Notes: generated from the sequence alone by a model not told the origin. A stretch of DNA of 64,000 nt from a bacterium (GCA_021817945.1 JAKAFL010000003.1:33664-97663), one strand, 5' to 3'. Positions 14,756-56,248 are shown, counted from the first letter of the stretch. Numbers and translations: made by a program.

Positions 14756-14916
14756 CCTGAAAAGCGAAATTGAAATGGTCAAGATGCGGCAAGATGCTGG
14801 AGCGGAAACTCTTTGAAATAATCGAAACCATACCCAAAGCGGTCTGGTGAGATTTTTCCAAATAGTTTGCGCCCGGTAGATTGGAGCAGATTGGCCTTTT
14901 GAATTTCATTTTCGGG
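14756..14916 (+). repeat. Palindromic dispersed repeat (MITE/REP-like), copy A
   Basis: cctgaaaagcgaaattgaaatgg...ccttttgaatttcattttcggg. Colinear with copies B-F. It lies between convergent gene ends. Confidence 0.85.
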
Positions 14917-15176
14917 TTAAAAGCGCCCGATGGGAACGTCCCCATCAATACTTGGGCAAAATTTTCTGGCGCTCGTCAAAAGTCGCAGCGGGCATGCGGC
15001 CGCGATACCGTTCTTTCATGGCTGCGCAAGGCCTCATTTTCGGAAAAGAGGCGCGGATAAGGCGACCCGTAGATTGTCGTGGCCACGAAACCGGCCAGCG
15101 GAAGGGCAAAGGAAATCTCCACGCTATGGAAATGATCCCAAAGCCAGCCCATCAGCACCGCCAGAATGGAATTGAA

Positions 15177-15764
15177 TCAGGCCAAATCCGCACTCAGGGC
15201 CACATAGGCCTGTTGCGCAGATGAAAGATCGCCCGTCTGAAGGGCGTTGAGCAAGTTTTGATAATCCGTGCCAATTTGGCTGTTGTTGCCAAAGGAGGAT
15301 GCCTGGATGGCATTCAAGGCTGTCAAGGCGCTGGAAAGATTACCCGATTGCAGGGCGCTCCCAACGCTTTGCAAATATTCCGCCGCCTGGCCCAGGTTTG
15401 CCTGGCTTGAACCAGACTGATTGGCCCCGCTCGTGGAGGACGATTTCGATTTCCTGAGGTCCGTTTTCAAGCTGGTGAGAGCCTTTTCAGCACCGGAAAT
15501 GTTGCCCGACTGAACGGAACTCACCAGGTTCTGATAAGCGGAATTCGCCTGGCTGTTGTTGCCAAAGGGTTGATTCGACGAGGTCTGGGAATTGCCCTGC
15601 AACTGTTTTTGCAGGTTTGCCAGGGCGCTTTGGGCCTCCGAAACATTGCCGGATTCCAATGCGCTGCCCACCGCCTGAAGCCCCTTCATCAAGGGGTTGG
15701 CCGCACTTGTATTGTTAGGCTGGTAAAAATAACCAGTTGAAGACAAGCTAGATACGCTGCTCAT
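15177..15764 (-). CDS. Q/S/N-rich protein with four degenerate repeats of roughly 27 aa (...SALQSGN(L/V/I)S.A..AL..L...); function unknown
   Basis: The repeats are LQAVGSALESGNVSEAQSALANLQ, YQNLVSSVQSGNISGAEKALTSLK, LQSVGSALQSGNLSSALTALNAIQ and YQNLLNALQTGDLSSAQQAYVALS. I prefer the ATG at 15764 (MSSVSSLSS, preceded by AGGAAA) over the track start at 15902. Confidence 0.55.
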   Translation of the reverse strand: MSSVSSLSSTGYFYQPNNTSAANPLMKGLQAVGSALESGNVSEAQSALANLQKQLQGNSQTSSNQPFGNNSQANSAYQNLVSSVQSGNISGAEKALTSLKTDLRKSKSSSTSGANQSGSSQANLGQAAEYLQSVGSALQSGNLSSALTALNAIQASSFGNNSQIGTDYQNLLNALQTGDLSSAQQAYVALSADLA

Positions 15765-16215
15765 AAATTTTTCCTGGTTTTCGTTCAGACCACTTGAGCC
15801 GATTTTTATCCACCACTGCATTTCTGTAATCGGATTAAAAGGTCTAAACTTGAGGGAAAAATGATCTTTGGGCCCACAAAAACTGTCTGAAAATAGAATC
15901 ATTCAACAATCCGCTTATGCCATGGGCAAGATCGGTCCAATAAAACGGAAATCCACATATTTGTTGAAACAGGAAGATCAGCCACAGGATAGCTCTGGAA
16001 GGATGTATTTACACCAAACCCCGCCAAACACCAAACCCACTCGCCCCAACCGCCTGACACGTTTTTTAAAACATTCTCGATCGGGGAAATCCAGAAAAGA
16101 TGGGGACTGGGATTTGACCAAAACCTGGGTGGGACAAACATTACCCAGTAAGGCTGTTCAGTGGAAACGGTGTTCGCCTTGCCGAAAGGCCCGTTGATTG
16201 GCACATTTCAGGGGA

Positions 16216-17388
16216 ATGCGCGATTACTTTCGTGACTGGATTGAAAAGGTGGAGACCTTCATCCTGCAGGTGATTTTTGAGGAACGCCATGATTGGCGGG
16301 CCAGGTGCACCCGGGCAGGGCTCTTTTTGGGATCCAAACTTTTTCAAGTCCTGGTCGTCATCAGGCGCTGGCTTTACAATGTTCGCATCCTGAGGGACAA
16401 AACGCTGGGAGTGCAGGTCATCGCCATTGGCAATCTGACAGTGGGCGGCACGGGAAAAACCCCGGTTGTGGAAAAATTTGCCCGGGAATTGCGCGATGCC
16501 GGTCGAAACGTGGCTATCTTATCGCGCGGCTACCGCTCCAAGCCGGTCGCCCTCCACACCAAATTTTTGAACAAGATTCTACTGCGCGAGGACCAGACAC
16601 CGCCCCGGATCGTGTCCGATGGGAAAAATCTTCTTCTGGATTCCAATATGGCCGGCGATGAACCTTACATGCTGGCATCCAATCTCAAGGATGTGGTGGT
16701 GCTGGTGGACAAGGACCGCGTGAAAAGCGGGCGCTACGCCATTGAAAAATTTGGGTGCGACACCCTGTTGCTGGATGACGGGTTTCAATACTGGGATTTG
16801 CGTGGTCGGAGGCATGATGTGGTCCTGATAGACCGGCAGCAGCCTTTTGGAAATGAACACCTCCTGCCAAGGGGGACCCTGCGCGAGCCCCCCGCGCATC
16901 TTGCACGCGCCCAAACCATCTTCATCACCAAAAGCGATGGCAACACGGCGGCCCTCAGGCAACGCATTGCCCAGTTCAATCAGACGGCCGCCATTATTGA
17001 GTGCGTTCACCAGCCGCTTTATTTTGAGGATGTTTTCAGCGGGGAGCGAATGGGGCTGGATTTTCTGCGCGGACGCAAGGTGGCCTCCCTCAGCGGCATC
17101 GCGCAGCCGGAAAGTTTCGAGCAAAGCCTGGTTCGCCTGGGCAGCGAACTGGTGTACGCCAAACGCTTTGCGGACCATCACCGCTTTACGCAGCAGGAAA
17201 TTTTGAATGCCATCAACCGCGGGAAAAAACGCCTGGCCCAGTTGATTATCACCACCCAGAAAGACGCCGTCCGGTTCCCTAAAATTGATCGCAGGGACCT
17301 TCCCATTTATTTCATGCGCGTGGAAATACGGATCGTGGCTGGCGCCAACGATTTTCAGGATTGTGTGCGCAAGATTTGCTTCCGTTGA
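16216..17388 (+). CDS. lpxK: Tetraacyldisaccharide 4'-kinase
   Basis: [16 protein letters not shown]-loop, followed by AILSRGYRS and LLDDGFQ. The track start at 16198 is a TTG; the first ATG is at 16216. Confidence 0.9.
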
Positions 17389-17396
17389 AAAATCAA

Positions 17397-18266: not shown

Positions 18267-18267
18267 C

Positions 18268-19398: not shown

Positions 19399-19423
19399 AA
19401 TTCAGGAAGGCTTCAAGCGCTGC

Positions 19424-21354: not shown

Positions 21355-21512
21355 CTTAATGGGTGCTGACCCACAGACATTCCGCAGGTTCTTCGGTAGT
21401 GATGGAGCATTCACCCAGACAGGAGGGCAGCAGGCAAAAAGCACCCATTTTTTCAGATCCCTTGTGCGTATTGGACGGTCATGGTGCCATTGACCACGGC
21501 CAGAAAATGCAT
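21355..21512 (-). pseudogene. Duplicated fragment of the manA 3' end (last ~55 codons and stop)
   Basis: 21355-21440 is nearly identical to 28251-28336 (cttaatggg(t/c)gctgacccacagacattccgcaggttcttcggtagtgatggagc...). Similarity resumes at cgtattggacggtcatgg..cacggccag after a short indel-rich stretch. Confidence 0.75.
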
Positions 21513-21521
21513 ACCGGAATT

Positions 21522-23000
21522 TCATAGAGCCTGGTACTCCTTTGGGTCATCCCAGCCCCCACCCAGGGCTTTGATCGTCTCGATGGTGGTGATGAGTTGT
21601 TGGGAGGTCAATTGAGAGAGTTGCACTTTTGCAGCCGAGCAACCCTGGTTGAATTCCAGGACTTCCATCTGATCCGCCAGACCTGCCTCCTGACGTTTAA
21701 GGCTCAAGGCCAGATTGGCCGTGAATTCGATTACCGTGTTACGGGCGGAATCCTTCTGTTCCGAAACGCGTTGCATGGCGTTCAGACTGTTTTCCACCTC
21801 GCTATAGGCAATCAAAACCTTCTCACGATACTGCGCGAGCGTTTCGGCATAGACGGCTTTTGCACGGCTTAATTCGGCGTGATTTCTGCCACCAAGAAAA
21901 ATGGGTAACGAAACGCTTGGGCCGAAACTCCAGTCGTGACTGGTCCAGTTAAACAGTGAATCTGCGCCTGCCGATAGATAGCCACCTGATCCAGTCAAGG
22001 TGACGACGGGAAAGAAGGCAGCTTTGGCCACACCGATCCGCGCGTTGGCGGCGGCAAGGGTGCGTTCAGCCGAGGAGATATCAGGCCTGCGTTTGAGCAA
22101 TTCCGAGGGTAGTCCCGCCGGGATTGCCGGCACCACTGGATTCCATTGGTTATCCGCCAGCTTGGCCAGATGGAAAATGCTCGGGTTTTCTCCCGCCAGA
22201 ACAGCGATGGCATTTTCCAGGTTCTCACGGCGCAGTTGCAATCCTGCAAGGTTTGCTTTTGCGGCGTCCAAAGGTACTTTCTGACTGTTCAATTCTGTTT
22301 CGCTGGATATTCCATTGGAACGCAACTCCGCCTGAAGTTCGACCTCATAAATGCGATCTTTGACAATTTGCGTCTGGTCGGTGATCTGCTCATCAAGCGA
22401 GCGCAAGGTGAAGTAATCCTCCGCCAAATCAGACGATTGGGTCAGAAGCAAACCGTAATAATCCGCGTCAGACGCCTGAGCTTCGGCCCGGCCGGCTTCG
22501 AAGCTGCGTCGCACCCGGCCCCAAAGGTCCACCTCGTAGCTCAAATCCAGCGGAGTGCCAATCTGGTTGAAAGTGGCATTCGGCGGGCCAATTTTGTTTT
22601 CCTCCGAGGTGTGATAGCGCGTCCAGACTCCATGGGCGTCCACGGTGGGAAGGAGAAAACTGCGATCCACCCTTGCCGTGGCGCGGGCTTGATTCAGACG
22701 GGAAAATGCGGCCTTTAGCGTCTGGTTTTGATTGAGAAGTTTGGTCTCCAATTCATCCAACTGCCCGTCCTGATAAATCATCCACCAGGCTTGTAGTTGT
22801 ATCCTTTCAAGCAACTTTTCATGGCTCAGGTTTCCCGAATTCCCGGATTTGTAGGCGGCGGGCGAGTCATTGGTGGGAGGTTGGTAATCCGGACCGACAG
22901 TCAGCGGGCCGCCGTGAATGGATTGGCAGGCGGTCAACAGACAGGATGTGGCCAAGAGTGTTATAATTCTTCCGGTGAGGTGTTTAAAAGAGATTTTCAT
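21522..23000 (-). CDS. RND efflux outer-membrane factor lipoprotein (NodT family)
   Basis: Lipobox LLATSCLLTACQS, followed by the typical duplicated OMF coiled-coil sequence. The ATG at 23000 lies 7 nt after the RND stop. Confidence 0.9.
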   Translation of the reverse strand: MKISFKHLTGRIITLLATSCLLTACQSIHGGPLTVGPDYQPPTNDSPAAYKSGNSGNLSHEKLLERIQLQAWWMIYQDGQLDELETKLLNQNQTLKAAFSRLNQARATARVDRSFLLPTVDAHGVWTRYHTSEENKIGPPNATFNQIGTPLDLSYEVDLWGRVRRSFEAGRAEAQASDADYYGLLLTQSSDLAEDYFTLRSLDEQITDQTQIVKDRIYEVELQAELRSNGISSETELNSQKVPLDAAKANLAGLQLRRENLENAIAVLAGENPSIFHLAKLADNQWNPVVPAIPAGLPSELLKRRPDISSAERTLAAANARIGVAKAAFFPVVTLTGSGGYLSAGADSLFNWTSHDWSFGPSVSLPIFLGGRNHAELSRAKAVYAETLAQYREKVLIAYSEVENSLNAMQRVSEQKDSARNTVIEFTANLALSLKRQEAGLADQMEVLEFNQGCSAAKVQLSQLTSQQLITTIETIKALGGGWDDPKEYQAL

Positions 23001-23007
23001 GAATTGA

Positions 23008-26000
23008 TTATTTTGAGGGTTGCGCATTGATTTTGAACCAAATGGAATAAAGCGCTGGCAGAAAGAGCAATGTGATGAATGTACCGATGGCAGTGCCACC
23101 AATCAAAACATAGGCCATCGAGCCCCAGAACACCGAACGGGTCAGGGGGATAAAGGCCAGCACGGCGGCAAGAGCGGTAAGGAGCACCGGCCGGGCGCGT
23201 TGGACGGTGGCTTCGACAACGGAATTGAAGGCGGACAGGCCCGCCTCCTGATTGGTTTGAATCTGGCCGATGAGAATCAGGGTGTTGCGCATCAAGATTC
23301 CCGAGAGACCGATGAGGCCCAGGATGGCGTTGAAACCAAACGGCTGGTGAAACAGCAACAAGGTGGGCACGGTGCCGATGAGACCCAAAGGCCCGGTCAG
23401 GAACACCATCCACATCATGGACAGGGAGCGGGTTTGCACGACGATGACAAACAAAGTCATCAGGATCATGATGGGAAACAAGGGTGCGAGGGCGACATTG
23501 GCCTTTGCGGAGTCTTCGATGTTGCCGCCCATTTCAATCCGATAGCCTTGCGGCAGCCGCCCCATCAGCGGCTTGAGGCTTTGATAAATTTCAGACGAAA
23601 CCTGCGGCGGCTGGAAGCGGTCATCAATGTCGCATTCGACCGTAAAAGTGGGGATGCGGTCGCGCCGACGCATGATGGGTTCCTCCATGTCGGTCTTGAT
23701 CTGCACCAATTGGTCGAGCGAAACCGGTTTGCCCTCGCGCGTCTTCAGGGTGAAGTCGCCCAAACGGCTCGGATCCAGACGCTCCTCCCCCATGCCGCGC
23801 ACCACTACATCCACGGTGCGGACATCCTCGCGCATCTGCGTGATAGTACGGCCACTCAACAAAAATTGAAGTTGCTGGGAAACCTCCTCCGGACTCATGC
23901 CGATGGCCTCCAGCCGCTCCTTGTTGAATTGCAATTTCATGGTGGGCTGCAATTCACCCCAATCCACGTGCACGGTCTGGGCATGCGGATTGGCACGGGC
24001 AATCTGTTCCACCTGCAAGGCGAGATCGTGGGCAACCTTCAAGTCGGGCCCCATGACCCGGAAGGTCACCGGAAAATGTGAATACGGACCGAAGACCAAC
24101 TGACTGGCGCGGACGCGCGCTTCGCTGGCGAGGCCGTTTGCCGCCGCAGCCCGCAAGCGGTTTTTGAGGGCGTCACGTTGCTCGGCGCTCGGGGTCAGGA
24201 CCAGGATTTTCGCGAAGGAAGGGTCGGGCAGTTCCGGGTTGTAGGAGAAAAAGAAACGTGGTGCGCCTTGTCCTACATAGGCAGTCACAATTTTAGCCTC
24301 CGGCTGCTGTTGCAACCAGGCTTCGACCTCGCTGGTCGCCTTGCTGGTGACTTCGATGCTGCTACCCTCGGGCATCTGCACTTCAACCAATACCTCCGGG
24401 CGGTCGCTGTTCGGGAAGAACTGCTTTTTGACCAGCGTCATCCCCAGGCCCGCGACCAGAAATATGGCGATCACGCTGAACAGCACTTTGAACTTGTGGG
24501 TCACGGTCCAGACAATGACCTCGCGGAGCTTCTGGTAACGGGGGGTGTTGTAGATGGCCTCATGTCCACCGGCGGTCGCCTTAATGTGCGGCAACATTTT
24601 CACGCCCAGGTAAGGAATAAAGAGAACGGCGACGAACCACGAGATCAGGAGCGCAAAACCCACGATCCAAAAAATGTTCCCGGCGTATTCCCCGGCGGTG
24701 GAGCGGGCGAAGCCAACGGGGATAAAGCCAATGATGGTCACGAACGTGCCAGCCAGCATGGGGGCCGCCGTGCTGGTCCAGGCCTGCGACGCCGCCTTGA
24801 TCCGGTCCATTCCTTCGTGCAGCTTCACGACCATGATCTCGATGGCGATGATCGCGTCGTCCACCAGCAACCCCAAAGCGATGATCATTGCACCCAGGGT
24901 GATGCGGTCGAAAACGCGGCCGGTGAGCATCATCACGACGAACACCCCGGCGAGCGTCAGGGGAACTGCCGTCGCCACCACGATGCCAACACGCCAGCCG
25001 AGGCTCACCAGACTCACGACCATGATCACCCCCAGCGCAACAAAGAATTTGAGCATGAATTCGTCCACGGATTCACGAATGTTGACGGCCTGATCGCAGA
25101 TTTTAGTGAAACTAACCGTCGCCGGGAGGGTGGCTTTGACATCCTGCTCGAATTTGTCCAGCGCCTTCCCCAGGGTCAGCCCATTCCAACCTTCTTTCAT
25201 GACGACACTCAAGACCATGCATGGATCGCCATTGTTGCGGATGAGAAATGTGGCGGGATCCTCGTAGCCACGCGTGATTTCTGCGATGTCCCCCAGCTTG
25301 ATGGTCCTGCCCTGCGAGGAAACGGGCGTGTTGGCCACCGTTTCCTCGTCGGTGAACCCAGCATCCACACGCACGAATACCTGCGGTCCGTCCGTGTCAA
25401 TCGAACCGGCGGGAGTCAGTTGGTTTTGGCGGTTCAGCGACTCGAACACATCATTGGGGCTGATGCCCAACTCCGCGAGCCGCGCATAGTTGAAATCCAC
25501 AAAAATCTTTTCCGGACGTTCCCCCAGAATCTGCACCTTTTTCACCCCGGCGACATGCAAGAGTTGTTCGCGGAGATCCTCGCTGTAACGGGTCAGGGCG
25601 CGCGGCTGCAGTTCCTTGCCCTTCACGGCATAGACCGCGAACGAGACATCGGAATATTCGTCGTTGATAAACGGGCCGGCCACTCCCGCCGGCAGGTTGT
25701 GCGCTTCATCACCGAGCTTCTTCCGCGCCTGGTAGAACTCCGATTGGACCACGGACGGCGGCGTGCTATCCTTCAAAAACAACGTCATCAGCGCCAACCC
25801 TGGACGCGTGAAGGTTTCGACGCGGTCATAATACTGAAGTTCCTGGAGACGCTTTTCGAGCGGGTCAGCCACGAGGTTCTGCATGGTTTCGGCGGTGGCA
25901 CCCGGCCAGACGGCGGTAACCGTAAGGACCTTGATGGTAAAGGCCGGATCCTCGGCTCTTCCGATTTTGAGGAAGGCAAACACACCGGCAGCGACCAGGG

Positions 26001-26067
26001 CGACGATGACAAACAGGGTGATGGCCCGTTCACGGACGGCCCACGCGGATAGGTTGGGGAATTTCAT
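23008..26067 (-). CDS. RND efflux transporter permease (AcrB/HAE1-like)
   Basis: About 1020 aa. The N-terminus MKFPNLSAWAVRERAITLFVIVALVAAG is followed by a 12-TM RND architecture and ...VVEATVQRARPVLLTALAAVLAFIPL. Confidence 0.95.
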   Translation of the reverse strand: MKFPNLSAWAVRERAITLFVIVALVAAGVFAFLKIGRAEDPAFTIKVLTVTAVWPGATAETMQNLVADPLEKRLQELQYYDRVETFTRPGLALMTLFLKDSTPPSVVQSEFYQARKKLGDEAHNLPAGVAGPFINDEYSDVSFAVYAVKGKELQPRALTRYSEDLREQLLHVAGVKKVQILGERPEKIFVDFNYARLAELGISPNDVFESLNRQNQLTPAGSIDTDGPQVFVRVDAGFTDEETVANTPVSSQGRTIKLGDIAEITRGYEDPATFLIRNNGDPCMVLSVVMKEGWNGLTLGKALDKFEQDVKATLPATVSFTKICDQAVNIRESVDEFMLKFFVALGVIMVVSLVSLGWRVGIVVATAVPLTLAGVFVVMMLTGRVFDRITLGAMIIALGLLVDDAIIAIEIMVVKLHEGMDRIKAASQAWTSTAAPMLAGTFVTIIGFIPVGFARSTAGEYAGNIFWIVGFALLISWFVAVLFIPYLGVKMLPHIKATAGGHEAIYNTPRYQKLREVIVWTVTHKFKVLFSVIAIFLVAGLGMTLVKKQFFPNSDRPEVLVEVQMPEGSSIEVTSKATSEVEAWLQQQPEAKIVTAYVGQGAPRFFFSYNPELPDPSFAKILVLTPSAEQRDALKNRLRAAAANGLASEARVRASQLVFGPYSHFPVTFRVMGPDLKVAHDLALQVEQIARANPHAQTVHVDWGELQPTMKLQFNKERLEAIGMSPEEVSQQLQFLLSGRTITQMREDVRTVDVVVRGMGEERLDPSRLGDFTLKTREGKPVSLDQLVQIKTDMEEPIMRRRDRIPTFTVECDIDDRFQPPQVSSEIYQSLKPLMGRLPQGYRIEMGGNIEDSAKANVALAPLFPIMILMTLFVIVVQTRSLSMMWMVFLTGPLGLIGTVPTLLLFHQPFGFNAILGLIGLSGILMRNTLILIGQIQTNQEAGLSAFNSVVEATVQRARPVLLTALAAVLAFIPLTRSVFWGSMAYVLIGGTAIGTFITLLFLPALYSIWFKINAQPSK

Positions 26068-26077
26068 GGGATATTTT

Positions 26078-27238
26078 TTAATTGATGGCTGCGTTGATTT
26101 TTTGACCGTCATTGAGGCGATGGGCGCCGGCGGAAACAATCAGTTCGCTCTGATTTAGCCCCCTAGAAATCACGGCTTCATTTTCCGTGATCCGCACGAT
26201 GTTGACGGCACGGGCTGAAACCATGGAACTGCTTGGATCAAAAATCCACACGGCGTATCCCTGGCCACGATTGATGATTGCACTTAATGGCACCTGGAAA
26301 GCACTGGATTTGCGTGACAACTTGATTGTCACAGTCGCCCCCAATCTGGCGCCTGCAGGATTCTCATCAATGGGAAACCTCGCTTCAAACGTCCGCAGCA
26401 CCGGGTCGGCCTGGGCAGCCAACTGGCGGAGATGGGCTTTCAAGGGAGTCGCCTCGTCGTCTCCGAGGTATGCCGTCGCCGTCGTCTCCGGCTCAAGTTT
26501 ATAAGATTCGGGTAGATCAACCACCGCTTCACGCGTGTCGTTGAAAGCGAGGGTGACAACCGGCTGGCCGGCCGGAACAACCTGGCCCGGTTCGGCCAGG
26601 GTATCAACGACCACGCCATCCTCCTCGGCGTAAATGGTGGTATAGCTGCGGGCATTGTCCGCGATCTCCTGCTGCGCCTGGGCGGCGATTTCATTGGCGG
26701 CACTGGCATCGGCGGCGGCCTTGGCGGCGTCAAAACGCTGCTGTGAGACAGCGCCATCACCTATTACTCCGGCAAACCGCGCTTGATCTGCTTGCGTTTG
26801 AATCTTGATCGCTTCGGAGGCGTGCATCTGTTGATCGGCCACCGTTGCGCTCAAGGTATAATCCGTAGCGTCAAGGCTCATCAGCGGATCGCCTTTTTTA
26901 ACGGTTTGCCCCTTGTCCACGAACCTTTTCACCACCTTGCCGGCCACGCGGAAACCCATGGGCGTCAGGACGCGGGCTTGAATGGTACCGGTAAAGGTGG
27001 AATCGAGGCTGGCTACCGGTTGCACCCTGGCCACCGGTATGGTTTGCACGGCGGCACGCGGATCAGTCGCAGCCTTGCCATTGGCAAAGGCGTGCAAGAC
27101 TTCCACCGCAGTCACGAAAAATCCGATGACCGCCAATGAATAGACAATCGTGCGCCCATGCGAAAAATGGTTGGATGAAGTCGTGCCGGCCGGGCTGTCA
27201 CCGTCTGGCGTTCCTGATGTGTCCTGGTTCTGATTCAT
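26078..27238 (-). CDS. RND efflux periplasmic adaptor (membrane fusion protein)
   Basis: N-terminal TM anchor, lipoyl/hairpin region (GDPLMSLDATDY...) and beta-barrel C-terminus. I prefer the ATG at 27238 because the GTG/ATG starts at 27268/27262 fall inside an operator-like palindrome. Confidence 0.9.
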   Translation of the reverse strand: MNQNQDTSGTPDGDSPAGTTSSNHFSHGRTIVYSLAVIGFFVTAVEVLHAFANGKAATDPRAAVQTIPVARVQPVASLDSTFTGTIQARVLTPMGFRVAGKVVKRFVDKGQTVKKGDPLMSLDATDYTLSATVADQQMHASEAIKIQTQADQARFAGVIGDGAVSQQRFDAAKAAADASAANEIAAQAQQEIADNARSYTTIYAEEDGVVVDTLAEPGQVVPAGQPVVTLAFNDTREAVVDLPESYKLEPETTATAYLGDDEATPLKAHLRQLAAQADPVLRTFEARFPIDENPAGARLGATVTIKLSRKSSAFQVPLSAIINRGQGYAVWIFDPSSSMVSARAVNIVRITENEAVISRGLNQSELIVSAGAHRLNDGQKINAAIN

Positions 27239-27255
27239 AATTATTTTTTGTTTGT

Positions 27256-27269
27256 AGTGCATATACACT
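27256..27269. promoter_or_regulatory. Operator-like imperfect palindrome upstream of the MFP gene
   Basis: AGTGCATATACACT (one mismatched pair). It shares the core AAAGTGTATAT(A/G)CAC with the perfect palindrome at 27757-27774. Confidence 0.45.
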
Positions 27270-27314
27270 TTCTAGGTTGTGTTTCAGTCGTTTGTTTTTT
27301 GATCGGTTAAAATT

Positions 27315-27737
27315 TCAGTTTTTGATGTTCTCCGCCGCTGTCCTCAACTTGTCCAACAGGTCTGCCCACTTCTCCTCGCCCAGCGTCTTTACGATTCTGT
27401 CCTGCGCCGCCCGCCATGCCGGGGTAAACTTCTCCACCTGTTTGCGGCCTTTCTCCGTGATGCTGACCTCCACCTGGACGCCATGGCCGCCACCGCTGCT
27501 TTTCAAAAGGCCATCGCGTTCCAAGGGCCGCAGGTTGCGGACCAGGGTGGTGCGATCCATCCCCAGCCACTCACTCAACTCAACCATCGTCCAGGATTCG
27601 CGGGCGCACAGCGCCTGCAAGATGGGCGTCTGAGTGGAGCGGATACCCTGCCGCCGCAACTCAGAGTCATACTGTTGCGTGATGATCCGCGTCACCCGCC
27701 GCAGATTGAAGCAGACGCAATTTGTCATCACGGTCAT
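27315..27737 (-). CDS. MarR family transcriptional regulator
   Basis: CVCFNLRRVTRIITQQYDSELRRQGIRSTQTPILQAL...WTMVELSEWLGMDRTTLVRNLRPLERDGLL is a winged-HTH MarR pattern. The start is uncertain (ATG at 27755, 27737 or 27728). Confidence 0.85.
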   Translation of the reverse strand: MTVMTNCVCFNLRRVTRIITQQYDSELRRQGIRSTQTPILQALCARESWTMVELSEWLGMDRTTLVRNLRPLERDGLLKSSGGGHGVQVEVSITEKGRKQVEKFTPAWRAAQDRIVKTLGEEKWADLLDKLRTAAENIKN

Positions 27738-27756
27738 GTCACGTTTAACTGTCATT

Positions 27757-27774
27757 AAAGTGTATATACACTTT
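27757..27774. promoter_or_regulatory. Perfect 18-bp palindrome immediately upstream of marR (putative MarR operator)
   Basis: AAAGTGTATATACACTTT is its own reverse complement. Confidence 0.5.
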
Positions 27775-27879
27775 TCACAACCCCTTGTCAACGGTTTTTT
27801 GAACAATTATTGTAATTGTCTGCTCGGGCCCGTGACTTTGCGGTCTTTATTGCCCATAAATCATGGCCAATGCGGCCTC

Positions 27880-28212
27880 AGCGATGCATTGGGACGCCGG
27901 GATAGCAAAAAACCTCATCCATCATGGGAACAACTCAAGCTGCCCTATGTGGTGGTGGCCCAGTTGAGCCAGCCCATTCAGAAACTCATCAAAGGCGATT
28001 TGATTTGGACCGCGACCGAGGTGCCAGGGACGGAAGTGGCCCAGCTCGAATATCAGGCGATGAGCTGGCCGCATCCGCGGCGGCTGGTGTTGCTGCGGCA
28101 TTGCTTCAGCAACCAGGAGGAACGCGACCGGTGGCCACTTTTCTGGGAAAAAATTTTGTCCCCCTTCCCCAACTGCAATGCAGTCGAAAACCAACCCACT
28201 TTCACCGCCTGA
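27880..28212 (+). pseudogene. Internal fragment of a DDE transposase (IS4/IS1380-like); IS remnant
   Basis: The C-terminal part of ORF 27634..28212 reads ...RRDSKKPHPSWEQLKLPYVVVAQLSQPIQKLIKGDLIWTATEVPGTEVAQLEYQAMSWPHPRRLVLLRH. This matches my memory of the '...ADSGF..PYVI.ARLT...W...G.EVAE..YQA.SW...RR.V..R' block of these transposases. No N-terminal or C-terminal catalytic parts and no inverted repeats were seen. Confidence 0.5.
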
Positions 28213-28251
28213 ATCAAGGTGGAAAATCAGTTTCTACTGAATGGATTCGGC

Positions 28252-29229
28252 TTAATGGGCGCTGACCCACAGACATTCCGCAGGTTCTTCGGTAGTGATG
28301 GAGCTTTCACCCAGACAGGAGGGCAGCAGGCAAAAATCCCCTTTTCTTAACTGTTCCCTCCCGTGGGCGTATTGGACGGTCATGGCACCGCTGGTCACGG
28401 CCAGTATTTGCATGCCGCAATCCGGGGTTGGGTGGGTGGCTTGCGCCGGAAAACGCCACAAATACACATCAAACAGCGGATCGCGCACCAGTTCGCGCAC
28501 CTGAATCTGGCCATGGTTTTTGACAGTGGTGGAAACCAGTTTAGGCTCGAAATCCCCAAAATCAATGCTCGCGAGCGACTCAGGAATATGCAGGTCCCGG
28601 GGACGTCCATCCAATCCCTTTCGGTTCCAATCAAAAACCCGGTAGGTGGTGTCTGAGTTCTGTTGAATTTCGAAGATCACCAAACCGGCCCCGATGGCAT
28701 GCACGCGTCCGCTGGGCAAAAACAAGGTGTCTCCCTGCGTAACGGCTATCTTGTGGAAACAATCGGCCACGGTGCCATCCGCAATTTTTCGCTCAAATTC
28801 ACTTTTGGTGACACCGTTTTTCAGCCCTGCATACAATTCGGCGTTTGGGGCGGCATGGGCGATGTACCACATTTCCGTTTTAGGCTCGCCACCCAGTTCC
28901 ACAGCCTTGGACTTGGGCGGATGGACTTGGAGCGAAAGCTTGTCCCGGGCATCCAGAATTTTACAAAGCAATGGAAACCGCCCCTCCGGCGTCGGGCAGG
29001 CCTTGCCCAAAAGTTCAGCCGGACGATGTTCCATGAGCCACCTCAAACTTTTCCCCGCCATCGGCCCATTTCGCACCACGCTCTCATCCCCTGGCCTGTC
29101 CGAAATTTCCCAGGATTCCCCCGTGGGACCATCATGCGGAATGCTTTTTTGGTAAAGATGAAACAGTTCGTGCCCGCCCCAAACGCGATCTTTGAACCGT
29201 GGCTCAAATATAAAAGGATGCATCTTCAT
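28252..29229 (-). CDS. manA: Mannose-6-phosphate isomerase, class I
   Basis: FIFEPRFKDRVWGG, GESWEISDRP, LSLQVHP, KTEMWYI and LPSGRVHAIG (cupin metal-site pattern of type I PMI). Confidence 0.9.
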   Translation of the reverse strand: MKMHPFIFEPRFKDRVWGGHELFHLYQKSIPHDGPTGESWEISDRPGDESVVRNGPMAGKSLRWLMEHRPAELLGKACPTPEGRFPLLCKILDARDKLSLQVHPPKSKAVELGGEPKTEMWYIAHAAPNAELYAGLKNGVTKSEFERKIADGTVADCFHKIAVTQGDTLFLPSGRVHAIGAGLVIFEIQQNSDTTYRVFDWNRKGLDGRPRDLHIPESLASIDFGDFEPKLVSTTVKNHGQIQVRELVRDPLFDVYLWRFPAQATHPTPDCGMQILAVTSGAMTVQYAHGREQLRKGDFCLLPSCLGESSITTEEPAECLWVSAH

Positions 29230-30263: not shown

Positions 30264-30467
30264 GACAGACCATCGTATCTAATTCCGACTTGGAAGCAAC
30301 TTCATTTCACAGGATTGTTCAATATCCATCCACCCTCAAAATCACATCTAATCAATTGATGGACATTGTATTACGCAATTCCGAGCACATTTTGCGCCTG
30401 GCTGAAAACCCATTAAACCTATTTCCATTGCCGGAGATATCCACAGGATGGGCAAACCGGGCTTTTC

Positions 30468-30629
30468 ACCCGAAAAGCGAAATTGAAAAGGACAAGATAC
30501 GGCAAGATGCCGAAGCGGAAACTCTTCTGAAAAATCGAAACCCTACCCACAGCGGTCTGGTGAGATTTTTCCAAAGAGTTTGCGCCCAGTAGATTGGCGC
30601 AGATTGGCCTTTGAATTTTGTTTTTCGGG
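30468..30629 (+). repeat. Palindromic dispersed repeat, copy B
   Basis: acccgaaaagcgaaattgaaaagg...cctttgaattttgtttttcggg. It lies upstream of accA. Confidence 0.85.
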
Positions 30630-30800
30630 TCGAATGGCGAAACACGAGGAAGGAAAACGCGCCTGCCATGCACTTTCCCTGCACTGCGCCGTTTCGCATC
30701 CCAAGCCAGTATCCCAGTTGGATTTGCAGGTCAACCCTGTCAGGTCAAACTGGGGTGGGATTTGTCGGGCAGGCATAAAAACAACCAGGCTGGAAATAAA

Positions 30801-30830
30801 AAAAGACCGGACTAAAAGTCCGGTCTTTTT
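30801..30830. terminator. Bidirectional rho-independent terminator hairpin
   Basis: aaaaAGACCGGACtaaaaGTCCGGTCTtttt: a 9-bp GC-rich stem and 5-nt loop, with T-runs following the stem on both strands (7 T on the minus strand). Confidence 0.65.
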
Positions 30831-31369
30831 GGTGACAAGGTTTATACGCCTTCACCCAGGCGCTCAGAAGGGCAACGCAGCCAACTTGAGTCGCTGTCCG
30901 AGCTGCGCCGCAAGCAAAACCCCTATGCCAACCCTAAACGGACAGCGAAATTTTCCTCGATCCACTTGGATTCGATTTTAACTATTTTTATATCCAAAAC
31001 TTTTTGCTGCCAACCCGCCCGACTTCAGACACCGCCACTCCCCCAAACACCACTGCCAACCCTGAGTCACTATCTACTTTCCCAATCTCCTCGTGCCGCG
31101 ATCCCCACCCCGATACGTCTAAAAACGGTTCTACTAATCAAAGACGCTTGCCGGTCTCAAAAGGTTCAAAAAAAATCATTGGGAACCTTTATTTTTTAGA
31201 CGCGCTGCCCCAATTCACAAAAGCGCCACTCCAGCCCATTCGCTCCAATCATTTTGCCCGGTTGGCTGTTTCATCCTACCGCTCCCACAGCACTTCAAAA
31301 AACCACCCTACCACCGAACCTTGGCGTCAAAATCGAATACCCATACAATTCACCATTTGGTTACTTTTG

Positions 31370-32110: not shown

Positions 32111-32121
32111 TTATGTTTAAA

Positions 32122-32283
32122 CCCGCAAACCGAAACTCAAAAGGCGAATCCACCCCAATCTACTGGGCGCAAACTCTTTGGGAAAATCCCACCGGACCGC
32201 TTCGGGTATGGTTTCGATTTTTCCAAAAAGTTTCCGCTCCAGCATCTTGCCGCATCTTGACCCTTTCCATTTCGCCTTTCGGG
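32122..32283 (-). repeat. Palindromic dispersed repeat, copy C (inverted relative to A/B/E)
   Basis: It fills the zwf-pgl intergenic space. The reverse complement aligns with the other copies end to end. Confidence 0.85.
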
Positions 32284-32385
32284 TTAAAAGACTCAAAACC
32301 AAGCAAAGAGACTCGCCGCCTCTGGATTCATCCAACCGACGAGATTTGCCAACATCACTGCTTTTGGAACCTCTTCCAGAATTAA

Positions 32386-34095: not shown

Positions 34096-34257
34096 CCCGA
34101 AAAACCAAATTCAAAGGGCCAATCCGCCCCAATCTACGGGGCACAAACTCATTGGAAAAATCCCACCAGACCGCTTCGGGTAGGGTTTCGATTTTCCCAA
34201 AAAGTTTCCGCTCCAGCATCCTGCCGTATTTTGCCGCTTTTACTTTCGCTTTTTGAG
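34096..34257 (-). repeat. Palindromic dispersed repeat, copy D (same orientation as C)
   Basis: It abuts the stop codon (34258-34260) of the upstream SDR gene. It is the most diverged full copy. Confidence 0.8.
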
Positions 34258-35043
34258 CTAAATGGACATGGCTGCAAACCCGCCGTCCACCACCATTTCC
34301 GTGCCGGTGATGAAGCTGCCGGCATCCGAGGCCAGCAGCAAAGTGGCACCGATCAACTCATGCGCTTCGCCGAATCGTTTCATGGGGGTTTTGGCCATGA
34401 TTTGCGCCACGCGTTCCGGGCTGAGAATCTTTCGGTTTTGCTCAGCCGGAAAGAAACCCGGAACCAGCACATTCACGCGCACGCCGGAGGCGGCCCACTC
34501 GCGGGCAAGGTTGAGGGACAGGTTATGGACCGCAGCCTTGGAGGCGGAGTAGGTAAAGACCCTCGACAGGGGCTTGAGACCGGAGGCGGAGCCCAGGTTG
34601 ATGATGCTGCCGGATTTTTGAGCCAGCATGTGGGCTCCAAAAACCTGGCAACCGAGCATCAATCCCTTCAAGTTGACCGTCAAAATACGGTCGAATTCCT
34701 CCTCGGAAATATCCAGGAAAGGCGTGGCCGAGTTGACACCTGCCCCGTTGACCAGCACATCAGCGCGACCCCAGCGGGCAAGAACCTCGGCCAGCAATTT
34801 TTGCAGGCTGGCGCGCGAGGTGGCATCACAGGCAAAGAAGGTCCCCTCGCCACCGGCGGCGCGGATTCGCTCTACTCGAACACGGGCCTTGGTCTCGTCC
34901 CTGCCGACCAGGGCCACCCTGGCGCCGGCTGCGGCCAATCCTTCCGCCATGGCCCCACACAATTCCCCGGTGCCGCCGATCACCACTGCCACGCGGTCTT
35001 TGAGGGAGAAAAGTTCAGCGTTTTTTTTCATTTTCATGGTCAT
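34258..35043 (-). CDS. SDR family oxidoreductase (gluconate 5-dehydrogenase / mannonate oxidoreductase-like)
   Basis: [21 protein letters not shown] and [12 protein letters not shown] (YxxxK), with C-terminus ...[11 protein letters not shown]. Confidence 0.85.
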
Positions 35044-35046
35044 GAC

Positions 35047-44547: not shown

Positions 44548-44563
44548 GAAAATAGAAATCTTC

Positions 44564-48946: not shown

Positions 48947-49095
48947 ACCCAGTCCGGCGCGCCTAATCCCCGAGGCTTCCAGGGATACCACAGCGGGACA
49001 TTGCCTGGACAGGCCCTTATCCGGCCTTTGATTGGATCCAATGATAAACACTGGATGCTTGTATTGCCCGGGCTGTTCCGGCCTTGAATGGCCGG

Positions 49096-50205: not shown

Positions 50206-50375
50206 ATATAATTGCGCCCACCAGAATAAACCAAACCCCGGCCAATGACCACCGAAGAAATGCCACCCCAAATCGCCGTCTCGGGTTCATTCTATCCAGC
50301 CTGGCCCCCGCGGTTCATGCGCCCGTCCGCTCATTTTGCCTTTCTACCTCCCCGCGGCCATGCTAAAAGGGACCC

Positions 50376-52390: not shown

Positions 52391-52595
52391 AGACCTCCCC
52401 AATCGCCTCCAGCAGATCGAGCAGCACATCGCCCACCTGGAACATCACGTGGACCAGATGAACACCATTTTACTGGAACAACAGAATGTGCTGATGCGCC
52501 TCAAAAAAGAGGTTCAACGCCAGACCCAAACCCTCCAAACCATGGAACTGGAGCGGATCAAGGCCAACATCACCAAGCCTCCTCATTATCAATGA
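52383..52595 (+). CDS. slyX: SlyX family protein
   Basis: A 70-aa coiled coil, RLQQIEQHIAHLEHHVDQMN..., ending KPPHYQ (SlyX-like PPHY tail). The ATG at 52383 overlaps the upstream stop. Confidence 0.75.
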   Translation: MTEDLPNRLQQIEQHIAHLEHHVDQMNTILLEQQNVLMRLKKEVQRQTQTLQTMELERIKANITKPPHYQ

Positions 52596-52610
52596 TTCGG
52601 CCTGTTTAAG

Positions 52611-52771
52611 CCGAAAAGCGAAATGGAAAGGGTCAAGATGCGGCAAAATGCTGGAGCGAAAACTCTTCGGAAAAATCGAAACCATACCCGAAGCGGTCTG
52701 GTGGGGTTTTTCCAAAGAGTTTGCGCCCGGTAGATTGACGCAGATTGGCCTTTTGAATTTCGTTTTTAGGG
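52611..52771 (+). repeat. Palindromic dispersed repeat, copy E
   Basis: ccgaaaagcgaaatggaaaggg...ccttttgaatttcgtttttaggg, flanked on both sides by gtttaagcc. Confidence 0.85.
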
Positions 52772-52916
52772 TTTAAGCCGCAGCGAGTCCGACCAGGATG
52801 CAGCCCGTCATCGAGTCCCTGGCACAATCATACTCCCTCCCCTGCGCCTCTCCCAATCCCGGACACGCCTCCATAAATTTGTAGTTATTTAGGGGCGTCT
52901 GCGCTAGGCTGGCAGG

Positions 52917-54116
52917 GTGAGTTTCGTTTCTGAATTGAATGCCCTGCCGCTTCAGGACCTGCTTCGTCATTCCTTGGAGGCGGATCAGGCTGCTGTGCTT
53001 TCCGTCTTGTCCAAAAGACAGGTTCCGCTCCACGATTTTGCCACCCTCATCTCTCCGGCTGCCGCAGGTTTCCTCGAGCCCATGTCACAAAAAGCGCGCG
53101 CCCTCACCCAGCAACGCTTTGGCAAGGTGATCCGGCTTTTCGCGCCGCTGTACGTTTCCAACGAATGCATCAATAATTGCAAGTATTGCGGGTTTTCCCG
53201 GGATAACCCCATCCTGCGCGTCACGCTGTCCATGGATGAAGTCCGGCAGGAGGCCATTGCCTTGCGCTCCGAGGGTTTTCGAAACATCCTCATCGTTGCC
53301 GGCGAACATCCACGCTTTGTTTCGAACCATTACCTGGCTGATTGCATTCGCACCGTCCGTTCGGAGGTGCCTGGCGTGTCGCTGGAGGTGGGGCCCATGG
53401 AAAAAGAGGATTACGTTCCCTTGGTGGATGCCGGGGCGGATGGTTTGGTGGTGTATCAGGAAACCTACGACCGGCAGGTGTACGAGGCCATGCACACGGC
53501 GGGTCCAAAGAAAAATTTTGATTGGCGCTTGGAAACCCCCGAGCGGGCCTATGCGGCCGGGTTCCGTCGCCTGGGCATTGCCGCCTTGTACGGGCTGGCC
53601 GACTGGCGGGCGGAGGCGCTGTGCGTGGCTGCCCACGCCAGCTACCTGCTCCGACACTGCTGGAAGGCCCAGGTTACCCTGTCCCTGCCACGGCTGCGAC
53701 CCTGCGCGGGCGAGTTTCAACCCCTCACCCACGTCTCCGACCGTGACCTGACCCAATTGGTTTGCGCCTTTCGCCTGATGTTCCCGGATGCTGGCATCGT
53801 GCTCTCCACACGCGAGACACCGCGCCTCCGCGATGGGCTCATGCCCCTGGGCATCACCCTGATGAGCGCGGGCAGCCACACGGAGCCCGGTGGCTACACC
53901 GGCGCCGGGCGACAGAATATCCATCGCACCGTCCAGGGCCGCCAAGTGGCCCTCGAACCGGATTCGCCGGAATGGCAGGCTGGTTCCCAATCCACTTCCG
54001 CCACCGTGCAATTCCAGATTTCGGATGGCAGGTCCGCAGGAGAAATCGCCTCCCGCATCCGGCAGCAGGGCTACGATCCCGTCTGGAAGGACTGGGATAC
54101 CGCGCTCACATCCTGA
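52917..54116 (+). CDS. thiH: 2-iminoacetate synthase (radical SAM)
   Basis: LYVSNECINNCKYCGFS cluster motif, ...LISPAAAGFLE... colinear with E. coli ThiH, and LMSAGSHTEPGGY. GTG start. Confidence 0.9.
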   Translation: MSFVSELNALPLQDLLRHSLEADQAAVLSVLSKRQVPLHDFATLISPAAAGFLEPMSQKARALTQQRFGKVIRLFAPLYVSNECINNCKYCGFSRDNPILRVTLSMDEVRQEAIALRSEGFRNILIVAGEHPRFVSNHYLADCIRTVRSEVPGVSLEVGPMEKEDYVPLVDAGADGLVVYQETYDRQVYEAMHTAGPKKNFDWRLETPERAYAAGFRRLGIAALYGLADWRAEALCVAAHASYLLRHCWKAQVTLSLPRLRPCAGEFQPLTHVSDRDLTQLVCAFRLMFPDAGIVLSTRETPRLRDGLMPLGITLMSAGSHTEPGGYTGAGRQNIHRTVQGRQVALEPDSPEWQAGSQSTSATVQFQISDGRSAGEIASRIRQQGYDPVWKDWDTALTS

Positions 54117-54141
54117 CCCCACCCTCCCCCACTCCCAGCCC

Positions 54142-54348
54142 ATGTCACCCCAGGTAGTTGCCAATGGCCAGCGGATCGAAACTTCGTTTCCGTGCAGCTT
54201 GGAAACCTTTTTGGTGGGTCAACACCTGTCCCCGCGGTGTGTGGTGGTGGAACTCAACGGACAGGCCGTGGCTCCATCTGAGTTCCAGCAGAGACAACTC
54301 CAGCCCGGCGACCGTTTGGAAATCGTCAAAATCGTGGCTGGCGGCTGA
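54142..54348 (+). CDS. thiS: Sulfur carrier protein ThiS
   Basis: 68 aa, MSPQVVANGQRIE...VELNGQAV...GDRLEIVKIVAGG, ending in Gly-Gly. The in-frame ATG at 54142 lies inside track ORF 53890..54348. Confidence 0.85.
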   Translation: MSPQVVANGQRIETSFPCSLETFLVGQHLSPRCVVVELNGQAVAPSEFQQRQLQPGDRLEIVKIVAGG

Positions 54349-54385
54349 GGTGAAATTCCACGGGGATGAACGCACCACGGGCCAA

Positions 54386-55672
54386 ATGCCGCCGCGCAAG
54401 ATCATGAAGGATCGTTTTACAGGATTATACCGGGTTTTTTTGGGCATTCTGGCAGCCCTGGCCTGCTGGTTTACCTGGTCCGCTCTGGCAGCGGATCCCG
54501 GGGTTGAAAACCTCCAACCCGCGAATGGCGCCAATCCTTACACCAATCTCCCCCGCATCCTCGTCCACTTGCACAACCAGCCGCTGACGTTCCAATTGGA
54601 CCAGGTGCCGGCGCTGCGCAACCATGATTTCCTGGGACAGCCCCTGTGGAAATACGCCGCTTCATGCATTTATGTCGCGCTCGCCTTCGCCCTGGCCTGG
54701 CTCATTGACCAGTGCGTGAAATTCTGGCTGCGGCGCCGGGCCTCGCGCTCCGGCAATCCCGGCGACGTTTTGCTGCTCAATGTGCTGGGCGGCCCGCTCA
54801 AGGTCATCATTTTCGTTTTCTTCCTCAATGTCGGCCTCAATATTTTTGAATGGCCCGAGCAGGCGGATGTCTTTCTTTCACGCATTTTCATCATCGGCGC
54901 CGCGCTGGCCGTCACGTTTCTCCTGGTCAAGTGCATGGACCTTTTGATCGCACTCTGGCGCCAGCGCCTCACAACCGCCCACGACAAGGTTTTTGCTGAT
55001 CAACTCCTGCCACTCGTCAGCAAACTCGGAAAAATCCTCGTCATCGTCGCCGCCGCCCTTCTCACTGCGGATAATCTCCATATTCGCATTGGTAGCGCCC
55101 TGGCCGGACTTTCCATTGGCGGCCTCGCACTGGGCTTGGCAGCTCAGGACACCGTGGCCAACCTCTTTGGCGCCGTCGCCGTGTTCCTGGATAAGCCTTT
55201 CAACATCGGCGACCGCATCCGCGTCCTCAACGTGGATGGCATAGTGGAATCCATTGGCCTGCGCAGCACCCGCGTGCGCAACCTCGATGGCCATCACGTC
55301 ACCATCCCCAACAAAACCATGGGCAACGAGGTCATCACCAACATCACCCGGCGACCCGGCATCAAGACCGAAATGAACATCGGCCTGACCTACGATACCC
55401 CCGCCCCGCGCATCCGCCAGGCCATCGCCATACTCCATGATATTCTTGGCTCCCATCCCCGCACCTCCTCCCTCACCATCAGCTTCAACCGGTTTGCCGA
55501 TTCCTCACTGAACATCCTCGTCGTCCATAATTGGAACGGAACCGATGCCCAGGAGCACTTTGACGATCTCCAGGAACTCAACCTGCGCATCAAGGAAAGG
55601 TTTGATGCGGAAAAAATCGAGTTTGCCTTTCCATCCCAAACCATTTACCTCAAAAATCCGGCGCCCGCTTGA
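54386..55672 (+). CDS. Mechanosensitive ion channel (MscS family)
   Basis: Signal/TM N-terminus (ATG at 54386) and an MscS core ...LANLFGAVAVFLDKPFNIGDRIRV...G.VESIGLRSTRVRNLDGHHVTIPN. Confidence 0.9.
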   Translation: MPPRKIMKDRFTGLYRVFLGILAALACWFTWSALAADPGVENLQPANGANPYTNLPRILVHLHNQPLTFQLDQVPALRNHDFLGQPLWKYAASCIYVALAFALAWLIDQCVKFWLRRRASRSGNPGDVLLLNVLGGPLKVIIFVFFLNVGLNIFEWPEQADVFLSRIFIIGAALAVTFLLVKCMDLLIALWRQRLTTAHDKVFADQLLPLVSKLGKILVIVAAALLTADNLHIRIGSALAGLSIGGLALGLAAQDTVANLFGAVAVFLDKPFNIGDRIRVLNVDGIVESIGLRSTRVRNLDGHHVTIPNKTMGNEVITNITRRPGIKTEMNIGLTYDTPAPRIRQAIAILHDILGSHPRTSSLTISFNRFADSSLNILVVHNWNGTDAQEHFDDLQELNLRIKERFDAEKIEFAFPSQTIYLKNPAPA

Positions 55673-55726
55673 CGCGCGGCTCATCACCACGCTGACACTC
55701 GCGCTCATCATCACCAATTTATATTC

Positions 55727-56143
55727 ATGGCTTCCTTCTGGCAGAATCTTCTCTGGCATCACGGGCATTTCCTGGGCATATCCTGGAGCGTGTGGAAACT
55801 CCTGGGCTGGGGCGGCAACCTCACCTTTTCATCCCGCTTCATTGTGCAATGGTATGCCACGGAGAAAAGCCGTCAGGTGGTTGTTCCCGTGCTTTTTTGG
55901 TGGCTCAGCCTGCTTGGCTCGCTGCTCCTTTTGATTTACGCCTTTAGCAAGACCGATTCCGTGTTCATTTATGCCTATCTCTTTCCATGGGTCCCTTACG
56001 TGCGCAATCTCATCATTCATTACCGCCACCAAAAAGCCCACATGGACTGTCCCGGCTGTGGTGAAAAAATTCCGCCCCACGCCAATTTTTGCCCCCAATG
56101 CGGGGCCAGGGCAGAACTTGCACCGCAAAACATCCCGAAGTGA
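55727..56143 (+). CDS. Lipid-A-disaccharide synthase N-terminal domain (LAB_N) membrane protein with a C-terminal zinc ribbon
   Basis: GWGGNLTFSSRFIVQWYATEKSRQVVVPVLFWWLSLLGSLLLLIYA, then CPGCGEKIPPHANFCPQCGA. Confidence 0.75.
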   Translation: MASFWQNLLWHHGHFLGISWSVWKLLGWGGNLTFSSRFIVQWYATEKSRQVVVPVLFWWLSLLGSLLLLIYAFSKTDSVFIYAYLFPWVPYVRNLIIHYRHQKAHMDCPGCGEKIPPHANFCPQCGARAELAPQNIPK

Positions 56144-56157
56144 GATGGTTCGTTAAT

Positions 56158-56248
56158 CCCGGAAAGCGAAATGGAAAAGGTCAAGATGCGGCAAGCTGCT
56201 GGAGCGGAAACTCTTTGGAAAGATCGAAATCATACCCGAAGCGGTCTG
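56158..56248 (+). repeat. Palindromic dispersed repeat, copy F (left half only)
   Basis: cccggaaagcgaaatggaaaagg...cccgaagcggtctg. Similarity stops abruptly just past the palindrome apex. Confidence 0.8.

Follow-up and report, generated by a model that had tools for sequence, protein, structure and literature searches.

A palindromic repeat of about 162 nt that recurs at six intergenic sites in a 64,000-nt stretch of bacterial DNA (GCA_021817945.1 JAKAFL010000003.1:33664-97663; "the window" below means this whole stretch) is, with a probability that we put at roughly 0.9, a miniature inverted-repeat transposable element (MITE), i.e., a non-coding element of 162 bp derived from a cut-and-paste (DDE-type) transposon and unable to move on its own. 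We read the repeat in this way because i) closely related strains carry a filled and an empty version of the same site; ii) independent copies are flanked by 5-bp target-site duplications (TSDs); and iii) the element is absent from close relatives. The family thus combines small size, lack of coding sequence, terminal inverted repeats (TIRs), a TSD of fixed length with an empty site, and dispersed copies whose insertions are polymorphic between close strains (copy E) and missing from the next relatives.

Copies and the empty site

The family, whose full copies measure 161 to 162 nt, is represented in the window by five full copies (A to E) and one half copy (F), listed here with the TSDs recognized by flank comparison:

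14756-14916, plus strand: copy A, full, 161 nt, 93.8% identity to the consensus; 29 nt past the stop codon of an SDR gene (plus strand) and 260 nt from a convergent gene
30468-30629, plus strand: copy B, full, 91.4% identity; in a 1.1-kb non-coding gap between pgl and accA (both minus strand), antisense to both
32122-32283, minus strand: copy C, full, 92.0% identity; between zwf and pgl, in sense orientation
32284-32288 and 32117-32121, minus strand: TSD of copy C, TTTAA, perfect
34096-34257, minus strand: copy D, full, 89.2% identity; directly after the TAG stop codon of an SDR gene (34258-35043, minus strand) and upstream of zwf, in sense orientation
52610-52771, plus strand: copy E, full, 95.7% identity, the least diverged copy
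52605-52609 and 52772-52776, plus strand: TSD of copy E, TTTAA, perfect
56158-56248, plus strand: copy F, left arm and apex (consensus positions 1-91 only), 93.4% identity; 14 nt past the stop codon of a LAB_N gene
56153-56157, plus strand: left TSD copy of copy F, TTAAT

All six sites had been picked out in an earlier sequence-only reading of the window, and all are real as judged by alignment and by BLAST against the consensus (E-values 1e-35 to 1e-72); word-7 blastn and an unfiltered profile search (nhmmer --max) of the window revealed no copy beyond these six, which occur in both orientations at unrelated loci. The earlier description of every copy as intergenic was also correct: the flanking genes are Pfam-supported, all copies lie outside such genes, and the open reading frames (ORFs) that overlap copies lack support, as does a database gene call of 77 aa within copy B which has no Pfam hit. 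The element has no coding capacity, and at none of its sites is the sequence protein-coding. Divergence among copies is star-like, pairwise identity being ~86% both within and between genomes.

The decisive result for transposition is the pair of alleles at the site of copy E. The window and three related loci (L021-L023; loci outside the window are designated by L numbers) read ...GCCTG-TTTAA-(162-nt element)-TTTAA-GCCGCAG..., whereas L024-L026 read ...GGGCTG-TTTAA-ACCGCAG..., with a single TTTAA and no element; L024-L026 are ~96% identical to the window across 3.5 kb, and the two alleles come from one species. A later insertion of copy E would agree with its identity to the consensus (95.7%), the highest of the copies; the sites of copies B, C, D, and F are filled in both lineages, and that of copy A is filled in every strain recovered. 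In relatives with G6PD identities of 96%, 88%, and 85%, the element is absent both from the orthologous sites and from the rest of the fetched DNA. Specifically, copy C is missing from the relative at 96% (L017), where the zwf-pgl gap is 120 nt versus 294 nt, but the intergenic DNA of L017 is too diverged for this empty site to be compared with base precision.

Target-site duplications

The element inserts at T-T-N-A-A/G, the consensus common to both flanks. Perfect direct 5-bp repeats border the copies in L004 (ATAAG), L007 (TTGAA), and L009 (TTCAA), as well as L005a, copy C, and copy E (TTTAA in each); the full 162-nt copy that L024 and L025 carry at the site of copy F has a perfect TTAAT/TTAAT duplication, and the copies in L003, L008b, and L011 match at four of five flank bases. 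These repeats are not extensions of the palindrome because they are direct, not inverted. When the right flanks of 14 independent full copies were permuted among copies, a procedure that preserves the target preference, 36.4 +/- 3.3 flank matches were expected and 47 were observed (p = 0.002). The TTTAA-like sequences that the sequence-only reading had noticed at most ends are therefore present, but together with the empty site the permutation test recasts them as a true 5-bp TSD.

Hairpin, termini, and internal motifs

Each full copy folds as a single long hairpin. Copy E folds at -81 kcal/mol (z = -10.3), and the consensus of 14 copies forms 66 pairs (62 Watson-Crick and 4 G.U) at -99 kcal/mol, with three 2x2 internal loops that are all purine-purine on the consensus strand; individual copies have 48-62 Watson-Crick pairs. 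"Near-perfect palindrome," the earlier description, captures a real hairpin but overstates it, given the three loops and Watson-Crick pairing of ~77% of positions; identity of the element to its own complement is ~72%. TIRs are present as the pair CCCGAAAAGCGAAAT / ATTTCGTTTTTCGGG (the ends of the element can also be written CCCGAAAAGCGAAAT...ATTTCGYTTTTCGGG), both ends start 5'-CCCG (CCCG...CGGG), and complementarity continues along the whole length of the element over the 66 pairs.

The consensus strand is more stable than its complement (-81 versus -56 kcal/mol for copy E, and -99 versus -72 kcal/mol for the consensus), an asymmetry that originates in the master sequence with its 4 G.U pairs and purine-purine loops. 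Each arm contains two 8-nt motifs at a spacing of 10 bp:

element positions ~25-42 (52634-52651 in copy E): paired 8-nt motifs of one arm
element positions ~121-139 (52731-52748 in copy E): paired 8-nt motifs of the other arm

The motifs (CAAGATGC; YAGATTGG) occur as CAAGATGC-gg-CAAGATGC in one arm and GTAGATTGG-gg-CAGATTGG in the other; their central GA falls on the same strand in both arms, which gives rise to the three purine-purine 2x2 loops, and the strand-specific hairpin gain associated with same-strand GA is about 27 kcal/mol. These motifs are candidate protein-binding sites.

Conservation is uneven along the element. Among paralogous copies the apical ~33 columns show 4.5% divergence per site versus 9.9% in the arms (p = 1.5e-4), and the apex is the most conserved part of the element, the extreme termini (terminal 10 nt) the most variable. 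The conserved apex more likely reflects subfamily differences located in the arms (e.g., TTGAAAA versus TGGAAAG) or dependence of transposition on the apex than host selection, which is the less likely cause because orthologous copies drift neutrally (see below).

An element that is one long hairpin, with strand asymmetry, a conserved apex, and a GTAG tetranucleotide in its right arm, also invites comparison with REPIN/REP sequences or IS200/IS605-derived PATEs, which a Y1 (HUH) transposase, for instance RAYT, moves in single-stranded form. We consider such an origin very improbable. Systems of that kind make no TSD, whereas the empty site and the flank statistics both reveal a 5-bp duplication, and a PATE, which has no TIRs and inserts 3' of an invariant tetra- or pentanucleotide, would not show the variable positions of the 5-mer on both sides, where they are in fact duplicated (ATAAG, TTGAA, TTCAA, TTAAT); the termini are CCCG...CGGG without a GTAG/CGTC tag, the GTAG of the right arm not being terminal; the unit, at 162 nt, exceeds the 20-40 nt of REP units; and a Y1 gene was seen in no locus table examined. 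The sequence-only reading had proposed a "MITE/REP-like" mobile or structural element: the first term survives on the strength of the empty site, the TSDs, and the absence from close relatives, and the REP-like and structural options are unsupported in view of the TSDs, the lack of a GTAG/CGTC tag, the lack of covariation, and neutral drift.

Position relative to genes and tests for host function

Copies D, L003, L004, L006, and L007 are located 0-1 nt from a stop codon. Among 17 classifiable sites, 8 are between convergent genes (versus a window background of 18-24%; p = 0.006-0.03), 6 are between co-oriented genes, and at most 3 are in or beside divergent promoter regions. Many copies sit on stop codons because the target includes TAA, TGA, or TAG, which the duplication regenerates, and the placement of the element at gene 3' ends needs no explanation beyond target preference combined with the loss of insertions harmful to genes or promoters. 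An apparent bias toward sense orientation, initially 6/6, became 5:1 (p = 0.22) after gene validation and was discarded; copy B is the only antisense copy among those between co-oriented genes, and the context of copy F is derived.

The pgl-accA gap in which copy B resides (30264-31369, 1.1 kb) is unusually long and devoid of Pfam-supported ORFs; the corresponding gap in the relative L020 is 377 nt. It also holds a strong bidirectional terminator-like hairpin, aaaaaagaccggactaaaagtccggtcttttt, at about 30800-30833.

REP, ERIC, and Correia elements have been reported to act at the 3' ends of transcripts, and the repeat could likewise be an exapted RNA element, a 3'-end hairpin serving as mRNA stabilizer, terminator, or RNase III target for which mobile origin is secondary. 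The far better folding of the consensus strand, on which all three loops are purine-purine, would suit such a role, as would the sense orientation of 5 of the 6 copies between co-oriented genes, the position of most copies just past a stop codon, and the twofold greater conservation of the apex compared with the arms. The orientation bias, however, is not significant, and the TTNAA target accounts for stop codon adjacency. Nor do the copies show compensatory changes: in 20 sequences 90.1% of cells are paired, a level equaled by column shuffles (237/500), double-sided changes do not exceed the shuffle level, and copy-specific changes are symmetric (~24 new G.U versus 30 A.C) with both arms equally conserved. 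An excess of G.U pairs, considered as a sign of RNA-level selection, was rejected because it consists of the 4 G.U pairs of the master sequence and is accompanied by no covariation. Orthologous copies C and D have diverged by 6.8% between two lineages, apex included, compared with 4.7-6.9% in the flanking non-coding DNA and 6.5-8.3% at third codon positions of the genes adjoining C and D. No consistent promoter or terminator motif was found in the element, and it has no Rfam match. The copies decay at a neutral rate without preserved base pairing, no host function of the element is evident, and we regard exaptation as an RNA element as unlikely.

Copy F and the vapBC segment

The half copy at F is secondary because the sister strains L024 and L025 hold a full copy at the same site. 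Homology between the window and the L024/L025 allele ends at element position 91 and returns at the last base of the right TSD; the 1,115 nt between these points contain a vapB/PIN-vapC pair and part of a second, unrelated repeat:

56249-57347, plus strand: segment that, in the window lineage, stands in place of the inner right arm of copy F
56380-56652, plus strand: vapB-like gene
56643-57044, plus strand: PIN/vapC gene
57166-57296: partial copy of the second repeat, within the vapBC segment
57348-57366, plus strand: what remains of the right terminus of copy F, TGAAATGGTTCGCTTTTCG

The remnant includes an 11-mer, TTCGCTTTTCG, that is exactly complementary to the left terminus and occurs three times in the window versus 0.08 expected, one occurrence being exactly at the junction. 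A 9-nt deletion compared with L024 has removed the final 2 nt of the element together with the right TSD copy. Copy F is accordingly a full copy in which other sequence has taken the place of the inner right arm, about positions 92-143, and the "half copy" of the sequence-only reading, correct as to the 91-nt left part, is a rearranged full copy and not a primary form.

A second, independent half copy (L010, on contig DAIDJC010000148.1 of a Limisphaerales metagenome-assembled genome, or MAG) ends at position 92. If breaks were uniform, a breakpoint shared by F and L010 just past the apex would have a chance of ~2%, and breakage at the center of the palindrome is the simplest reading of it. We also considered vapBC as mobile cargo bounded by element ends; this was unsupported, as vapC was found only at the F locus among the loci examined.

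The F junction bears on another alternative, in which the repeat is a recombination site, either integron attC-like or an integrase attachment hairpin at cassette boundaries. As such a site might, the repeat forms an imperfect palindrome just 3' of genes, mostly in sense orientation, and F adjoins a toxin-antitoxin cassette at its apex while L010 breaks at the same position. An attC site, however, belongs to a cassette array beside an integrase, has R/L boxes with a GTTRRRY core, and lacks a TSD. The copies have core housekeeping genes (zwf, pgl, accA, dnaK-like, sucC) as neighbors and are not in cassette arrays; the empty site is that of a simple insertion with a TSD, and no integrase is nearby; the G|TTTAA flanks do not fit GTTRRRY; and vapBC is present at one locus only. 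There is little to recommend this alternative over transposition of a MITE, and we give it hardly any weight.

The region downstream of copy F (56380-59800) is a strain mosaic when compared with L021-L025, with vapBC present or absent; L021-L023 have a full HsdM (486 aa), the window and L025 have a 164-aa N6_Mtase fragment, and L025 has a Fic gene in addition. The region resembles a strain-variable toxin-antitoxin and restriction-modification island. The second repeat, a dispersed family of ~130-190 nt without relation to the MITE, is found in the window at 57166-57296 and 57410-57540, and elsewhere at L002:1-73, L004:36-93, and L024:3594-3785 and 4473-4654, the two L024 copies being inverted around two small minus-strand genes (101 and 85 aa).

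Host lineage and distribution

The host is an uncultured Limisphaerales-like (Verrucomicrobiota) bacterium: the nearest named homologs of the G6PD encoded in the window are labeled "Verrucomicrobiae bacterium," and the flanking proteins likewise indicate a verrucomicrobial lineage. The only genome matched in a scan of one genome per prokaryotic species with the apical core as pattern was the fragmented Limisphaerales MAG DAIDJC01, in which 11 sites matched the pattern and blastn recovered 13 copies. These 13 copies are independent insertions because their flanks are unrelated to the window. The sequence-only reading had named a lack of further copies, or a conserved coding segment, as grounds for its refutation; neither applies, as there are more copies outside the window and at no site is the sequence coding.

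We were unable to find the family elsewhere. Searches of JGI metagenomes produced no match to a left-arm pattern and one match to the apical pattern, but no true copy; this match (L012:8552-8578, Ga0272443_10004809) is intergenic, agrees with the 27-nt apical core at 25 of 27 positions, has no arms, and is probably due to chance, a single match being about what is expected when so large a collection is searched with a 19-base pattern. Neither viral contigs nor 72,556 plasmids contained a match to the element, and Rfam gave no hits at gathering thresholds for the whole window and none at E <= 5 for copy E. Literature on MITEs in Verrucomicrobia and on MITEs with 5-bp TSDs yielded no description of the family, in agreement with the sequence-only reading, which had recognized no named family. 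The family was found only in this species complex and in one Limisphaerales MAG.

Within the species complex, copy B is identical in strain L014, and in another lineage the ortholog of copy A (L027:3487-3665, L028/L029:1348-1526) contains consensus positions ~41-60 twice, as an internal duplication of ~19 nt. Contigs L001, L002, L016, L026, L030, and L031 end inside or beside copies, L001 breaking inside copy B; short-read MAG assemblies of this lineage break at copies because of the element.

Source of mobility

Cut-and-paste transposition suggests the following steps. A transposase encoded elsewhere or since lost would recognize the CCCGAAAAGCGAAAT termini, may also recognize the subterminal motifs spaced by 10 bp and the conserved apex, and would cut the palindromic target with a 5-bp stagger; the palindrome spanning the whole element could have arisen by inverted duplication of one transposon end.

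Several observations weigh against the MITE reading. Copies A, B, D, and L005b share only 2-3 of 5 flank bases (3/5 for copy A, TTTTA/TTAAA, and 3/5 for copy D, TTTAG/CTTGG). The combination of a conserved apex with variable termini is the opposite of the usual pattern for a TIR-dependent element. A search for an autonomous partner that shares these termini and encodes a transposase was negative for the window, ~240 kb of related loci, and the plasmid and viral collections; for the window, Pfam gene annotation and a search for inverted-repeat pairs revealed neither a transposase nor an IS-like inverted-repeat pair, just as the sequence-only reading had said. We infer mobilization in trans and DDE chemistry from the fixed-length TSD alone.

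A more ambitious possibility is that the family represents an undescribed transposon lineage (TTNAA target, 5-bp duplication, CCCG ends, and an apex, instead of termini, critical for transposition) in which the apex may be a favored site of breakage or integration and an entry point for foreign modules, as for the vapBC pair in F, with L010 broken at the same nucleotide. We think this doubtful; if true, MITE copies would be landing pads that seed strain-variable defense and toxin-antitoxin islands in Verrucomicrobiota.

Comparison with known elements

The Correia elements (NEMIS) are intergenic Neisseria MITEs of ~100-160 bp that form hairpins, duplicate an AT-rich target, and carry a central host-factor site. 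Our element resembles them in size, lack of coding sequence, intergenic location, inverted-repeat ends, long hairpin, multiple copies, and duplicated AT-rich target, but Correia elements have a TA (2 bp) duplication and unrelated 26-bp TIRs and are restricted to Neisseria, whereas the element described here has a 5-bp TTNAA duplication and CCCGAAAAGCG termini, and inhabits a verrucomicrobium; no sequence similarity between the two was found, and there was no Rfam match.

The inverted repeats of the Tn3 family start with GGGG, whereas both ends of our element are CCCG and complementary over the full length; the TSD alone is compatible with a Tn3-like parent, but the GGGG ends do not fit. Among Tn3 derivatives, the TIMEs have 5-6-bp AT-rich TSDs and 38-bp inverted repeats homologous to those of the Tn3 family (PMC4133298). 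They share with our element non-autonomy, 5-(6-)bp AT-rich duplications, small size (262 bp for TIME), and derivatives with toxin-antitoxin or resolvase cargo; no blastn match to the element was found in a plasmid collection rich in TIME and Tn3 sequences.

Elements of the IS1380 family have 4-5-bp TSDs and CC-type termini, and by these features the 5-bp TSD and CC termini of our element are compatible with an IS1380-like parent, although no family assignment is justified and no IS1380-type transposase was found with the element. Members of this family can mobilize adjacent DNA via imperfect alternative ends (PMC9330008). In addition to TSD length and CC ends, the likeness to ISEcp1 and ISPme1 extends to the F allele, with its authentic left and degenerate right end; unlike IS1380 derivatives, however, the F allele occupies the site of a full copy in sister strains, which indicates local rearrangement and not a new transposition unit.

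ERIC/IRU and REP/BIME/REPIN sequences are, like our element, intergenic, imperfectly palindromic, located in transcribed regions, and enriched at gene 3' ends. REPs and REPINs, however, lack a TSD and depend on RAYT, and ERIC is 127 bp long with an unrelated sequence, whereas our element has both a TSD and an empty site.

Other features of the window

Some further features of the window stand apart from the repeat. Genes for an RND efflux system (OEP, AcrB-type pump, HlyD-type adaptor, and MarR-like regulator) occupy a segment of 6.7 kb (21521-28250) that strains L013 and L014 lack; on either side of this segment are direct repeats of ~170 nt (21355-21520 and 28251-28421; 79-93% identical), in which the 3' end of a PMI gene is duplicated. 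Three consecutive ORFs of 228, 315, and 221 aa (665-3553) have no Pfam match even at E = 0.01, and adjoin a minus-strand ORF of 2,367 aa (3993-11096) with many internal repeats.

Significance

The family is new and narrowly distributed, but its kind, the classical bacterial MITE, is well known, and our understanding of transposition itself is unchanged by it. We wish to stress that a target motif containing a stop codon can mimic a functional link to gene 3' ends, and that bias in the orientation or position of such repeats should not readily be taken as evidence of regulatory function. To our knowledge, the mobile elements of uncultured Verrucomicrobiota have barely been catalogued; here one family is documented with its boundaries, TSD, target motif, empty site, and neutral decay rate, and the polymorphic copy E provides a strain-level insertion marker.

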